The notes under the pieces: model-generated
What the model saw: only the letters and a program-made list of their open reading frames with translations
Told to the model about the DNA's origin: nothing
Databases searched by the model: none
Source: Candidatus Woesebacteria bacterium
GTDB lineage: Bacteria > Patescibacteriota > Microgenomatia > UBA1400 > UBA1396
Assembly (NCBI GenBank): GCA_963749595.1
Contig: CAVVNJ010000003.1
Span: forward strand, 89,532-153,531
Direction of reading: 5' to 3'
Length of the DNA: 64,000 bases
In this document: positions 25,955 to 42,570 of the stretch, piece by piece
Position numbering within the stretch: position 1 is the first letter of the stretch
Layout of the letters: each line of letters starts with the position of its first letter
Program-made: the position numbers and the translations under genes

Positions 25955-27382
25955 ATGGGAAAATTCTATATCACTACGGCCATCCCCTACGTTAACGCCC
26001 GGCCGCATATTGGGCACGCGCTGGAATTCGTACAGGCTGATGTGCTGGCTCGTTTCCATCGTTTGTCTGGTGACGAAACGATGTTATTGTCGGGTGCGGA
26101 CGAGAATTCCCTGAAAAATGTTCAGGCGGCGGAAAAAGAGGGTTTGCCGATTCAAGAATTTCTCGACAAATACTCGCAAATATTCCGTGATTTTGGTAGT
26201 TTGTTAAACACGCAGATCGATCTCTTCCAGCGCGGTTCCGATCAGCAGAGTCATTGGCCGGGAGTACAAAAGTTTTGGCAGCGCTGCCAGGAATCCGGTG
26301 ACTTGTATAAAAAAAGCTATAGCGGTTTGTATTGTGTGGGTTGTGAGTTGTTTTATACTCCGGAGGAATTAATCGACGGTAAATGTCCGATTCACTTACG
26401 CGAACTAGACCGAGTGACCGAAGAAAATTATTTTTTCCGCTTAAGTCGTTATCAGGAGCGGATTAAGCAAGCGATTGAAACCGACGAAGTGCGGATTGTT
26501 CCCGAAAATCGCAAAACGGAAATGCTCCGCTTTATCGAAAAAGGATTGGAAGATTTTTCCGTCTCGCGCACTAAGGAACGGGCGCGCGGAGTGGGTGTGC
26601 CAATACCCGGTGACGACATGCAAGTGATGTACGTCTGGTTCGACGCGCTAAATATTTATTTGACTGGTTTGGGTTTTGGGCAGACTGATGAATCGCGCTG
26701 GCAGAAATTTTGGCCGGCCGACGTCCATGCGATCGGTAAGGATATTCTCCGTTTTCACGCGGTTTATTGGCTGGGCATGTTACTGTCGGCCGGCCTCCCC
26801 TTGCCGAAAATTATTCTCACCCACGGTTTCATTACTAGCGGCGGCCATAAGATGTCCAAGTCCTTGGGAAACGTGATTGATCCCTTCGCGATGGTCGAAA
26901 AGTATGGTGTCGATCCCATTCGTTACTATCTCTTGCGGGAAATCCCAACGCTCGATGATGGTGATTTTTCGGAAACTCGGTTTGTTGAACTTTATACTGC
27001 TGAATTAGCCAATTCTTTGGGTAACACCGCCAGTCGGATTGCTAAGATGGCGGCGAATGTCGGTTATTCTCAATCCTCACCGTCGCTTGACTGGAAATAT
27101 TGGTATCCGGAAGTAAAGACTGCCTTAAACGATACACTCGATATTCGGGCTGGCATCAGTCATATTGTTTCGGTCTTAGCCGATCTTGAGAAGCAAATTG
27201 CGATCGAGAAGCCTTGGACCTGGAAAATCGAAGATGCTCAGAAATTGGAGAAATTTGTCGGCGCTATTTACACTATCGCGTGGAACCTACAACCCTATTT
27301 ACCGTCAACTGCGGAAAAATTACTGGCCCATTTTTCGGAGGGAAAAATTGAACCTTTGACTCCTCTGTTTCCCAGGATGTAA
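25955..27382 (+). CDS. metG: Methionine--tRNA ligase (short form, no C-terminal tRNA-binding domain)
   Basis: 475 aa. FYITTAIPYVNARPHIGHALE (HIGH motif), CVGCELFYTPEEL...GKCPIH knuckle, HKMSKSLGNVIDP (KMSKS motif). Confidence 0.9.
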   Translation: MGKFYITTAIPYVNARPHIGHALEFVQADVLARFHRLSGDETMLLSGADENSLKNVQAAEKEGLPIQEFLDKYSQIFRDFGSLLNTQIDLFQRGSDQQSHWPGVQKFWQRCQESGDLYKKSYSGLYCVGCELFYTPEELIDGKCPIHLRELDRVTEENYFFRLSRYQERIKQAIETDEVRIVPENRKTEMLRFIEKGLEDFSVSRTKERARGVGVPIPGDDMQVMYVWFDALNIYLTGLGFGQTDESRWQKFWPADVHAIGKDILRFHAVYWLGMLLSAGLPLPKIILTHGFITSGGHKMSKSLGNVIDPFAMVEKYGVDPIRYYLLREIPTLDDGDFSETRFVELYTAELANSLGNTASRIAKMAANVGYSQSSPSLDWKYWYPEVKTALNDTLDIRAGISHIVSVLADLEKQIAIEKPWTWKIEDAQKLEKFVGAIYTIAWNLQPYLPSTAEKLLAHFSEGKIEPLTPLFPRM

Positions 27383-38077: not shown

Positions 38078-38563
38078 ATGGTTTTCCATCCGGTCGTTGA
38101 CACAATTCTCGATTTATTGCGCCAAAACGGTTGTTGGTTTGAAACCTTTACCCATGAGCCGGTCCGCACTAGCGAGGATGCGGCGAAGTTGCGGACTGGA
38201 TACGTTCTTTCACAAGGGGCCAAGGCTCTGATCCTTAGCATCAAGAAAGAAGGCTCAAAACGCTTCGTGATGGTGGTAATTCCTGGTGACCAGCGCTTTG
38301 ATCCCGAAAAACTCAGGGCCGCGCTGGGCGCCAAATCGACGCGCTTTGCCACGGAAGCCGAAGTCAGCGAAATCACCAACGGTGTTCAGCTTGGCGGAGT
38401 ACCACCGTTTGGGCAGTTGTTTGGCTTAGAGGTCTTGGCCGATCCAAGTCTTCTGAGTCAAGAAAAGATCATCTTTAACGCCGGGGACCGTAGTTTTTCC
38501 GTCGCGATGCAGTCGGAAGATTATCAACGCCTAGTGCAACCAAGGTTAGCTGAGCTCGTCTGA
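38078..38563 (+). CDS. YbaK/EbsC-type aminoacyl-tRNA editing (deacylase) domain protein
   Basis: 161 aa. FETFTHEPVRTSEDAAKLR, KALILSIKK, VMVVIPGDQRFDPEKL, VSEITNGVQLGGVPPFG. Confidence 0.75.
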   Translation: MVFHPVVDTILDLLRQNGCWFETFTHEPVRTSEDAAKLRTGYVLSQGAKALILSIKKEGSKRFVMVVIPGDQRFDPEKLRAALGAKSTRFATEAEVSEITNGVQLGGVPPFGQLFGLEVLADPSLLSQEKIIFNAGDRSFSVAMQSEDYQRLVQPRLAELV

Positions 38564-40316: not shown

Positions 40317-41339
40317 TCATGGACGCTCCGCAAAATAATCCATCTTCATCGCTTGCCGAACTTTGGTTAAAGTTTTTTGTGCCTCCAAGCGCGTCACTCG
40401 GCTTCCTTCGGCCAGAATTTCTAAGACCAAAGCCGGATTCTGTTCGTACTTGGCGCGGCGCTCGCGGATCGGCGCGAGGAAATCTTCCAGGCGGCGATTA
40501 ACTTTTGCTTCACCTCCACGTCGCCAACTTTGCCCTGTCGATATCCGGTCTTTCAGGTCCTCGACTTCCGCTTTATTGGGATTAAAAGCGTCGTGATAGG
40601 CAAAAACCGGATTACCCTCCACCCGGCCCGGATCAGTCGGATGCAGGCGATTGGGGTCGGTGTACATGCCCATGACGGCGCGCTTTACCTCTTCGGTGGT
40701 GGCGGACAACATGATGGTGTTGCCCAAACTCTTGCTCATTTTGGGATTGCCGTCGGTGCCGATCAGCTTGCCGACTTCGCCGACTAACCCTTCGGCGCGC
40801 ACTAGGGTTTCGCCATATAAGGAATTGAATTTATCGACGATCTCGTTGGTCATTTCAATGTGCGGCAGTTGGTCCTTGCCGACCGGGATCAGGTTGGCGC
40901 CCACGCAGGTAATGTCCGCCGCCTGGAAAAACGGGTAGTTGATAAAGCCCATGGAATACGTTTCGCCCAGGCCCTTCATCACGATCTCGTCCTTGATAGT
41001 GGGGTTGCGCAGCGCGCGGGCGTGCGAGACCAGCATGCTGTAAATCGCGGCTAATTCGTAGATTTCCGGGATTTCGGACTCGATAAACATATGGATTTTT
41101 TCCGGGTCCAAGCCGACGGCCAGGTTGTCGATGGCCACTTCGATGGTCGACTCGCGCACTTTATCCGGGTACGCCGACAGAGTCGTGAACGCGTGCAGGT
41201 CGGCCAGAATGATGAAGGTTTCGTACTCATCCTGCAAACGCACCCGATTTTTCAGAGTGCCGACGTAATGGCCCAGATGGAGTTTGCCGGTTGGCGTGTC
41301 CCCAGTTAGGATCCGTTTTTTTGGTGGTATGTTTTTCAT
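40317..41339 (-). CDS. trpS: Tryptophan--tRNA ligase, with an internal 18-codon stretch that reads out of frame
   Basis: ILTGDTPTGKLHLGHYVG (HIGH motif), KMSKSLGN (KMSKS motif). Start placed at MKNIPP (41339) because SD AAGGAG lies 5 nt upstream. See the finding on 40491-40544. Confidence 0.9.
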   Translation of the reverse strand: MKNIPPKKRILTGDTPTGKLHLGHYVGTLKNRVRLQDEYETFIILADLHAFTTLSAYPDKVRESTIEVAIDNLAVGLDPEKIHMFIESEIPEIYELAAIYSMLVSHARALRNPTIKDEIVMKGLGETYSMGFINYPFFQAADITCVGANLIPVGKDQLPHIEMTNEIVDKFNSLYGETLVRAEGLVGEVGKLIGTDGNPKMSKSLGNTIMLSATTEEVKRAVMGMYTDPNRLHPTDPGRVEGNPVFAYHDAFNPNKAEVEDLKDRISTGQSWRRGGEAKVNRRLEDFLAPIRERRAKYEQNPALVLEILAEGSRVTRLEAQKTLTKVRQAMKMDYFAERP

Positions 41340-41671
41340 ATTTGCTCCTTTGTCCATTTTGTAGCGGGAAGCCTTCCCTGCGGGAAAGCATCCTAAACAA
41401 AAAGCCCTTGCACATCCACCACAACGTGATGAATAGACAAGGGCCTTATCGGCGGTGCCACCTTGCTTTGCTCTTTCTTACGATCGAGCCTCTGTGACTG
41501 ACTCCTGAGGAAGGTTAAACCTTCGAGGATATCAGCTTGAAGGATGATGACGGTCTTCGACCGGAATCGCTACTTTCGCTCGCGCGATGATTCACGATTC
41601 GCCTCGAGGGGCCCATTCTCCCCTCTCAAACGGCTGTTTAGTCATTATACACACATTTTTTTGCTAGGCAA
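41340..41671 (-). promoter_or_regulatory. T-box riboswitch leader (Trp specifier) with its promoter, controlling trpS
   Basis: All on the reverse strand. Promoter TTGCCT-N16-TATAAT (41644-41671). Hairpin GAGGGG-AGAAUGGG-CCCCUC (41606-41625) presents GAA-UGG-G. T-box core AAGGUGGCACCGCCG (core at 41451-41462). Terminator GCCCUUG...CAAGGGC + UUUUUGUUU (41395-41444). Then SD and the trpS ATG. Confidence 0.7.
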
Positions 41672-41727
41672 CAGTCTTGCTTTCGCCTGGAGAGCGAGTA
41701 GGATCAGCCTCAGAACAGGAGGTGAGT

Positions 41728-42570
41728 ATGGCCAAACATACTACTCCTCAAGAGACTGCCCCCACCCTTGAGGTCATAAAACAGTTCCCGACCCGGGAAC
41801 AGGTTATAAGCGGTTTTCCCGAACGGGAGGGTTATGAAGTCGTCGATTCGCCGCTGCCCTTCGCCGAGAGGTTGACCGCTTTCGTGCTGCTGCGCGATAT
41901 TAACCTGTCGTCCGCCAGCCAGCCGTACGTCCAAGCCTACCGGGGTTGGGACTTCAACCGGCGTGGCGACAACCTGCTGACCAAGCCTGAGTACGGGACC
42001 GGTTTCGAGGGTTATGGGGTTGGGCGTTATGCCAAGGGCGAGGACATGATTCTGGAGATCGCGCAGCGGGGAAAAGACGAGATCGATTTCATCAAACGGC
42101 TTTATCCTGATGTTTACCGGACCGTCCTGAAAGAAATTTGGGACGCGTTGGCTGGCCGCCGCGTTACCAGCCGGGCATTGGAAACGCTGCAGGGCATCTG
42201 GATTAGTAACCTACATCGCTATCAGGAAGAAATCCGGGGAAACCGGGTGGCCGAAAGTTTTCGCGACAACACCAAACTGACGGTTGCCTCCGCGTCCCGC
42301 GTAGGATTTTATTACGAACCAAAGGGGAAAATTATCCACTGTGTTTATTACCGGCCCAAGGCGCGGCGCGGCCTGGCCGGGGTGCAGATTGAACGTTGCG
42401 GCAAAGACCCGGAGAAGTTGCTGGCTGGCGACCCGGGATTGGTTGACGGTTGGCGGCTGATGAGCGAGGTGGGAAAGCTTGGCCAGATGGCCGTGCGGGC
42501 CGCCGGTGAACACGGGTTCTTGCGGGGCAGTATCACCGAAGCGGTGCGGTCAGACAACGGAATGCGTTGA
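41728..42570 (+). CDS. Hypothetical protein (280 aa)
   Basis: Start moved to MAKHTTPQE because a strong SD (AGGAGG, 41717-41722) lies 5 nt upstream. No recognisable motifs. Confidence 0.55.
   Translation: MAKHTTPQETAPTLEVIKQFPTREQVISGFPEREGYEVVDSPLPFAERLTAFVLLRDINLSSASQPYVQAYRGWDFNRRGDNLLTKPEYGTGFEGYGVGRYAKGEDMILEIAQRGKDEIDFIKRLYPDVYRTVLKEIWDALAGRRVTSRALETLQGIWISNLHRYQEEIRGNRVAESFRDNTKLTVASASRVGFYYEPKGKIIHCVYYRPKARRGLAGVQIERCGKDPEKLLAGDPGLVDGWRLMSEVGKLGQMAVRAAGEHGFLRGSITEAVRSDNGMR

Follow-up and report, generated by a model that had tools for sequence, protein, structure and literature searches.

The gene for tryptophanyl-tRNA synthetase (TrpRS), trpS, in a 64,000-nucleotide stretch of Candidatus Woesebacteria DNA (assembly GCA_963749595.1, contig CAVVNJ010000003.1, positions 89,532 to 153,531; here called the window) is preceded on the minus strand by a structured leader, and this leader raises the question of whether a T-box riboswitch can stop transcription with almost no Stem I. 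An earlier note on this DNA had suggested that the leader is a T-box whose tryptophan codon, UGG, sits in the terminal loop of an ultrashort Stem I, and that it is coupled to a terminator instead of to sequestration of the Shine-Dalgarno (SD) sequence. The analysis described here leads us to believe, with good confidence, that the leader is probably a tRNA-Trp-sensing T-box riboswitch which would control trpS by transcription attenuation, and would do so with an ultrashort Stem I. This reading is favoured because of the elements present, the two mutually exclusive folds, the match between codon and gene, and the conservation with compensatory change in related leaders.

The leader as a candidate T-box

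The Rfam T-box model, RF00230, was used to evaluate the leader. It matches positions 41436-41639 of the minus strand over the full model (positions 1-219) with 34.2 bits, and with E = 8.4e-6 when an 801-nt region is searched or E = 6.7e-4 when the whole window is searched with all 4227 families. The match, which had been proposed as a check, is significant by E-value though below the gathering score, and it aligns no conventional long Stem I: 72 consecutive Stem I positions are deleted and 6 nt are left. The model aligns with high posterior probability the kink-turn (K-turn) base of Stem I (CC-GUUU-GA...GA-GG), Stem II (GAA/AGUA), Stem IIA/B with CCGUCA, Stem III, and the antiterminator. The platform that binds the tRNA elbow, formed in a long Stem I by AG bulge and distal loop, is absent. 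The leader as a whole folds at -103 kcal/mol (z = -6.65 against shuffles). On this evidence it would be a member of the T-box superfamily and would work like a T-box. The Rfam scan of the window at gathering thresholds reports no T-box, and the whole-window E-value scan with Rfam finds no second one; metG (25955-27382) has no such leader.

On the leader strand UGG occurs at 41615 (in the first hairpin's loop), 41460 (in the T-box bulge), 41421 and 41418 (in the upper terminator) and 41356, and the copy in the Stem I apical loop is the sole one 5' of the T-box, as the earlier note had held when it found no other UGG at the usual long-Stem-I site. A conventional long Stem I with its specifier elsewhere was considered and is ruled out by the lack of any further UGG 5' of the T-box and of any distal motif. 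The Stem I hairpin begins about 12 nt from the inferred transcription start near 41637, which bears out the placement of GAGGGG...CCCCUC within about 15 nt of the start. The codon context GAA-UGG-G is present as described, and the purine after the codon is conserved in relatives; the preceding GAA is not, and is GGU or GGA in its place.

Downstream of the T-box core two structures compete for one strand. The antiterminator fragment GCAAGGUGGCACCGCCGAUAAGGCCCUUGU folded alone takes the canonical 7-nt-bulge shape, (((((.......(((.....)))))))), at -7.3 to -9.1 kcal/mol, with helix A1 (CAAGG/CCUUG), the 7-nt bulge UGGCACC (UGGC at 41460-41457) and helix A2 (GCC-GAUAA-GGC). The terminator hairpin folds at -24.5 kcal/mol, or -32.6 kcal/mol for the enclosing segment from the T-box to the U tract, and is followed by U5GU3. 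The terminator 5' arm, GGCCCUUG, doubles as the antiterminator 3' strand, and therefore the terminator and the antiterminator are mutually exclusive; folding of the alternatives, another suggested check, thus gives an antiterminator of about -9 and a terminator of -24.5 kcal/mol in competition for GGCCCUUG. A simple terminator scan overlooked this hairpin, presumably because its stem has an internal mismatch unfit for a stem-loop pattern, and fold calculations recover it. The SD is placed some 50 nt beyond the terminator stem, on its 3' side, and does not pair with the terminator hairpin. The predicted layout is that of a transcription attenuator rather than an SD sequestrator. Another candidate role for the hairpin, as terminator of a convergent gene, was ruled out: the neighbouring gene is divergent, and the U tract is on the minus strand only.

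Related trpS leaders

The window TrpRS has one 100% identical database protein. Its next relatives are metagenome proteins with 69-80% identity, and named relatives (62-66% identical) come from WWE3, Parcubacteria and Patescibacteria; the relatives of the window methionyl-tRNA synthetase are from Daviesbacteria and Patescibacteria (56-59% identical). Both proteins thus point to a probable Patescibacteria host. Among 177 fetched loci, which form the comparison set (individual loci are numbered with an L), there are two kinds of trpS leader. The ultrashort plan of the window recurs in four more leaders, all from uncultured relatives with a closely related TrpRS: L081, which precedes a racemase gene and a ybaK::trpS fusion; L176, which precedes ybaK::trpS-trpEGDC; L085, which is part of a 950-kb contig in assembly GCA_964641255.1; and L168. 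L169 is a fifth further leader and is incomplete at its 5' end.

The first hairpins of these leaders are CCAG-AUGGUUGGAA-CUGG in L081, CCAG-AAGGUUGGAA-CUGG in L176, CCGG-AGGGAUGGAA-CCGG in L085 and GUAGAGU-CGGUUGGG-AUUCUAC in L168. In each of the four, UGG plus a purine is on the 3' side of the loop, so that all 5 trpS leaders, the window's included, carry UGG plus a purine in the loop. All four have the UGGC bulge and a canonical antiterminator (-8.2 to -9.8 kcal/mol). Their terminators (-21 to -35 kcal/mol) run into U6, and their start codons lie 22-87 nt past the terminator. The SD is outside the terminator hairpin in all 5, and the proposed coupling to a terminator instead of SD sequestration holds in 5/5. 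The upper terminator stems have wholly different sequences across leaders, with pairing kept.

The 3' domains of the ultrashort trpS leaders are clearly homologous (local alignment z of 6.8 to 22), and the 5' domains fall into three sets that cannot be aligned with each other (the window, L168, and L081 with L176 and L085; z of -1.4 to 3.1). Since the hairpin is retained although the 5' domains cannot be aligned, the short hairpin with UGG and a purine in its loop seems to have been kept through complete sequence turnover. The chance of a given codon plus purine in an 8-10-nt loop is about 0.04-0.055, which for three independent lineages gives about 1e-4 by rough arithmetic. The K-turn pattern CC-N3-4-GA...GA-GG is also found in L081, in L085 and in L002, an aspartyl-tRNA synthetase leader described below; L176 has UA for the 3' GA.

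Pairing in the Stem I module was evaluated with a hand alignment of 6 modules, N-padded so that MAFFT kept the columns, which was used instead of a MAFFT alignment of the raw segments that did not follow the structure. In the hand alignment, which has three related rows and was fitted to the proposed structure so that its pair counts lean towards that structure, 100% of stem cells are in standard pairs and 5/7 stem pairs have changes on both sides. Among shuffles, 0/500 reach the percentage paired or the covariation score and 3/500 reach the count of compensatory pairs, and slid controls have 42-60% of cells paired. The Rfam match of L176 (40.3 bits) likewise deletes Stem I positions, 74 of them, and shows a reduced Stem II, GCACA-AAAGUA-UGUGC. 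Compared with that of L081 (AGCA-AAAGUA-UGCU), this reduced Stem II has compensatory changes, and RNAalifold agrees (the L081 start coordinate was off in the run, and a long-range pairing that it put forward lacks support and was set aside). The RF00230 deletion, the like arrangement of L081, L176, L085 and L168, and the GAC-A found at this place in the L002 aspS leader thus support an ultrashort Stem I that bears the specifier in its terminal loop.

The second kind of trpS leader has a long Stem I with distal motif and a terminator, and is found in 39 trpS loci, mostly from Chloroflexota. It has N-A-UGG-R on the 3' side, 3' of the distal motif, in 38/39, and its bulge is UGGC in 33 and UGGU in 6. 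The short form therefore seems to be a distinct state and not an alignment artefact, given that 39 long-Stem-I leaders occur in the same sample. No T-box was found at the closest metagenome loci (L086-L092), and a scan of viral contigs for the T-box plus antiterminator pattern gave no match.

The leader at L085:2830-2990 is a minimal-looking T-box, made of a K-turn, a 4-bp helix, the loop, Stem III, T-box and terminator. Just 15 purine-rich nt (GGAGAAAAUAAUUAA) lie between its Stem I and Stem III, and it has no Stem II, Stem IIA/B or distal platform. It has no Rfam T-box match even at E<=10, though its 5' part is about 80% identical to L081.

Layout, proposed mechanism and alternatives

The features of the leader and of trpS are collected below. 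The promoter, the two further hairpins, the T-box core with its UGGC bulge, and the terminator followed by the SD and the trpS start codon, all of which had been read from the letters in the earlier note, are present.

Predicted features of the trpS leader, in order of transcription
Feature	Position	Strand	Basis
Sigma-70-type promoter, TTGCCT (41671-41666), 16-nt spacer, TATAAT (41649-41644)	41644..41671	-	10/12 consensus positions match
K-turn-like base of Stem I, 5' strand: CC (C-stem), GUUU bulge, GA	41626..41633	-	Rfam alignment to model GA motif
Ultrashort Stem I: 6-bp GAGGGG/CCCCUC, 8-nt apical loop AGAAUGGG	41606..41625	-	sequence and fold
Predicted specifier UGG (41615-41613) and purine G41612	41612..41615	-	codon complements tRNA-Trp anticodon CCA
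K-turn-like motif, 3' strand: GA, then GG closing C-stem	41602..41605	-	Rfam alignment and comparison of leaders
Stem II, GAAUCG...CGAUUC, enclosing UCGC-GCGA-GCGA	41564..41600	-	Rfam alignment (GAA, AGUA matched); minimum free energy fold agrees
Stem IIA, CGGUC-GAA-GACCG (41563-41551), then F-box-like CCGUCA	41548..41563	-	Rfam alignment and sequence
38-nt hairpin in linker insertion outside Rfam consensus	41498..41535	-	Rfam insertion; fold
Stem III, GGCUCGAUCGUAAGAAAGAGC, then AAAGC	41470..41490	-	Rfam alignment; fold
Antiterminator with T-box core AAGGUGGCACCGCC (41464-41451)	41437..41466	-	Rfam alignment; isolated-fragment fold
Intrinsic terminator: hairpin GGCCCUUG...CAAGGGC (41445-41404) and UUUUUGUUU tract (41403-41395)	41395..41445	-	fold and sequence
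Extra stable hairpin CUUUCCCGCAGGGAAGGCUUCCCGC between terminator and SD, no U tract after it	41364..41388	-	fold and sequence
SD AAAGGAG (41351-41345), ATG 41339, trpS coding sequence to 40317 (340 aa)	40317..41351	-	TIGR00233

There are 2 promoter-like sites in the 1-kb region, where 0.5 are expected from shuffles, and the predicted transcription start is at about 41637. The S-turn consensus of Stem II is given by GAA in its 5' strand together with the purine run GAAAG-UA in its 3' strand, and the GAA loop of Stem IIA could possibly pair with UUC at about 41541-41539 to form Stem IIB. The trpS reading frame matches the equivalog TIGR00233 with 239.5 bits (cutoff 176.75). A mechanical call of the open reading frame (ORF) starts at the in-frame upstream ATG 41357; ATG 41339 is the likely start because the SD precedes it and the length fits the 340-aa database protein and its homologs. 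The neighbouring gene (41677-42570) is on the plus strand and divergent from trpS.

In the proposed mechanism, transcription would begin near 41637, and the first 35 nt would fold into the K-turn-like base and the 6-bp helix, whose 8-nt loop would offer UGG-G to the tRNA-Trp anticodon CCA. A distal Stem I platform to receive the tRNA elbow is missing, and docking on the codon-anticodon duplex would presumably fall to Stem II, by way of the purine run in its S-turn, and to Stem IIA/B. This docking is suggested by analogy with the Mycobacterium ileS complexes, the purine run being GAAAG-UA in the window and AAAAG-UA in L081 and L176; that the tRNA 3' end stacks on the discriminator is likewise taken from those complexes as summarised in review. 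Without the platform, tRNA occupancy might be helped by long inserts and long terminator stems, which would add transcription time, or by pausing. Bacterial tRNA-Trp carries G73. When the tRNA is uncharged, its 3' GCCA would pair with the UGGC bulge and stabilise the weak antiterminator (about -9 kcal/mol). When it is charged, the stronger terminator (about -25 kcal/mol plus U5GU3) would form, and the polymerase would stop about 55-65 nt before the trpS start codon.

Several observations weigh against this mechanism. The leader does not reach the gathering score of RF00230 (34.2 against 93 bits). Full trpS leaders of the ultrashort plan number five, of which L081, L176 and L085 are related in their 5' domain, and the alignment that carries their covariation was made by hand, with the lean described above. 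The leaders also differ in ways that make the mechanism not uniform across them, as L168 lacks the K-turn motif and L085 lacks both Stem II and an Rfam T-box match. No T-box was found at several close TrpRS relatives (L083, L166, L170, L171, L172-174, L175), and ARAGORN detects no tRNA gene within the window, while the 20 tRNAs that it finds in 171 fetched loci include no tRNA-Trp. Last, transcriptional T-boxes have been argued to need an elbow-binding platform for fast tRNA capture (PMC7583486), and on that view a terminator switch without the platform should work poorly.

The same leaders lead us to consider a further idea, which is possible but rather doubtful: that in terminating T-boxes without an elbow platform, and in L085 also without Stem II, a K-turn codon hairpin of about 30 nt plus Stem III and the discriminator are enough for the co-transcriptional decision. 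If this were true, such leaders would be the smallest natural T-boxes, and the kinetic argument for a long Stem I would not apply to these bacteria with small genomes. Compensation might then come from slow or paused polymerases, for example at hairpin-plus-U-run elements inside several leaders.

Three other explanations of the leader were weighed against the terminator-coupled T-box. In one, an insert such as the linker hairpin would be a substitute platform and make the tRNA-elbow contact of the lost distal Stem I. Between Stem IIA/B and Stem III the window leader does carry an insertion of about 58 nt outside the Rfam model, and L081, L176 and L168 have large structured inserts at the same place. 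But the inserts are unconserved in sequence and shape among the 5 leaders, L085 has none, and the window insert, including its 38-nt hairpin, inspected by eye, has no AGAGA or GGUGNRA T-loop-type platform motif, which makes this explanation an unlikely one.

A second explanation is that the leader is a decaying remnant, in which the distal Stem I was deleted, tRNA sensing was lost, and the terminator has become a constitutive damper. T-boxes are patchy in this lineage, with many close TrpRS relatives lacking one, the middle regions differ greatly among the 5 leaders, and Stem II is lost in L085, all of which could be seen in decay. Against this, UGG plus a purine is kept in the loop across three unalignable 5' domains, with compensatory changes in the stem, and 5/5 leaders have kept the UGGC bulge, a canonical antiterminator and a terminator that overlaps it. 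A permanent terminator of -25 kcal/mol would also be costly ahead of what is apparently the only trpS in the 64-kb window. We consider decay very unlikely.

The third, translational control by a big hairpin that hides the ribosome-binding site without stopping the polymerase, as in the actinobacterial ultrashort ileS T-boxes, seems highly improbable, for although the ultrashort T-boxes in the consulted literature are all described as translational, and the equally ultrashort L002 aspS leader has GGAG inside the 3' arm of its competing hairpin and no U tract, the window SD is well clear of the hairpin and unpaired in the fold, the hairpin base is G+C-rich with UUUUUGUUU directly after it, and the four relatives are alike in this.

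Comparison with known T-boxes and other leaders

The ultrashort class of Stem I is known from actinobacterial ileS T-boxes, those of Mycobacterium smegmatis and M. tuberculosis (Sherwood, Grundy and Henkin 2015, by way of PMC7583486 and the preprint 10.1101/2023.02.28.530422). The preprint describes the class as translational, with every member regulating ileS. According to PMC7583486, most translational T-boxes have an intermediate or ultrashort Stem I without the elbow-binding motif, and transcriptional T-boxes generally require a long Stem I.

The window leader resembles the ultrashort ileS T-boxes in that its Stem I is cut to a short helix whose terminal loop holds the specifier, that the distal elbow platform is missing, and that the K-turn at the base, the T-box bulge and Stem III are conserved; the Stem II S-turn and Stem IIA/B are likewise retained, in L081 and L176 as well. 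It differs from them in its codon, UGG (Trp), and its gene, trpS, in its host, which is probably of Patescibacteria type and not an actinobacterium, and in its expression platform, an intrinsic terminator with a U tract and not an SD sequestrator. On this evidence, the window leader would share the decoding module of the ultrashort class and depart from three of its descriptors, namely ileS, SD sequestration and Actinobacteria.

Canonical transcriptional T-boxes of class I (RF00230) include Bacillus subtilis tyrS and, among the Chloroflexota trpS leaders, L024, L026, L121 and L128. With these the window leader has in common the competition of antiterminator and terminator through one strand, as well as the 7-nt bulge UGGNACC, Stem III, the Stem II S-turn, Stem IIA/B and the K-turn. 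Its codon context, GAAUGGG, is identical to that of Chloroflexota trpS leaders. Unlike the canonical form, it lacks about 72 Stem I model positions (the upper helix, the AG bulge and the distal loop), and its codon is in the apical loop instead of the 3'-side internal loop. L085 resembles the glyQS-type T-boxes in having neither Stem II nor Stem IIA/B (PMC7583486). However, glyQS keeps the long Stem I platform, whereas L085 has neither platform nor Stem II, and the window leader keeps Stem II.

Judging by the sequences and their predicted folds, we rate a Trp-specific, terminator-coupled ultrashort T-box as what would be a new form of T-box. A search of the accessible literature gave no account of T-boxes in Patescibacteria or the candidate phyla radiation (CPR), nor of ultrashort trpS T-boxes, with an earlier mention being possible. 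Conserved terminator-coupled Trp leaders with an ultrashort Stem I would be a natural counter-example with which the kinetic argument can be tested directly. The leaders score far below the Rfam threshold or have no match at all, and therefore routine annotation misses ultrashort leaders; T-box regulation is probably under-counted in Patescibacteria-like genomes. They are also very compact, Stem I through antiterminator taking up about 110-230 nt, which makes them attractive for structural work and for small engineered tRNA sensors.

Another ultrashort leader was found 5' of the aspartyl-tRNA synthetase gene aspS in a Saccharibacteria metagenome-assembled genome (MAG), at L002:4091-4330. Its Stem I, CC-AAC-GA-A-GCGG-CAGACA-CCGC-U-GA-GG, repeats the K-turn and the short helix and shows GAC-A in its loop, and Rfam matches it as a T-box with 38.7 bits and 72 Stem I positions deleted. 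Its SD, GGAG, is within the 3' arm of a competing hairpin that no U tract follows, which is a translational layout. Taken alongside the trpS leaders, it suggests that the ultrashort form is not confined to one amino acid and that both platform types occur, and it widens the ultrashort class to a gene other than ileS and a host outside Actinobacteria. In L005, a proS leader from a second Saccharibacteria MAG, Stem I is longer and a terminator is present.

In several trpS leaders, Patescibacteria-like ones and others from Chloroflexota, the part around Stem III contains a G+C-rich hairpin plus U5-7 immediately 5' of the T-box: L081:2130-2160, L176:460-500 and L169:45-70, and also L054, L068, L076, L080, L156, L157 and L163. 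One such element reads AUCCCUG-GCGA-CAGGGAU-UUUUUU, and the stems vary by compensatory change. The element could be an internal pause or terminator site. The window leader is without it.

The trpS genes themselves vary in their surroundings. In many close relatives (L081, L166, L169 and L176) TrpRS is a fusion protein of about 490-508 aa that carries a YbaK-type tRNA-editing domain at its N-terminus (PF04073 plus PF00579), and a YbaK-like gene is separate in L172 and in the window (38078-38563, plus strand). A small gene of the Trp_repressor family (PF01371, 81-84 aa) is upstream of the trpS operon at L166:2031-2282, L171:895-1140 and L176:86-340; L176 has both this gene and a T-box, and L166 and L171 have no T-box.

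Elsewhere in the window, positions 2981-25931 of the plus strand hold about 24 head-to-tail ORFs of 298-334 aa each, an apparent tandem array of paralogs which ends 24 nt before metG. Its Pfam matches are weak only: Mur_ligase_C with 24 bits (below cutoff) and PRTase-CE with 30.5 bits. At L085:1236-1443, on the minus strand, there is a group I intron with 77.4 bits, where the gathering score is 50.

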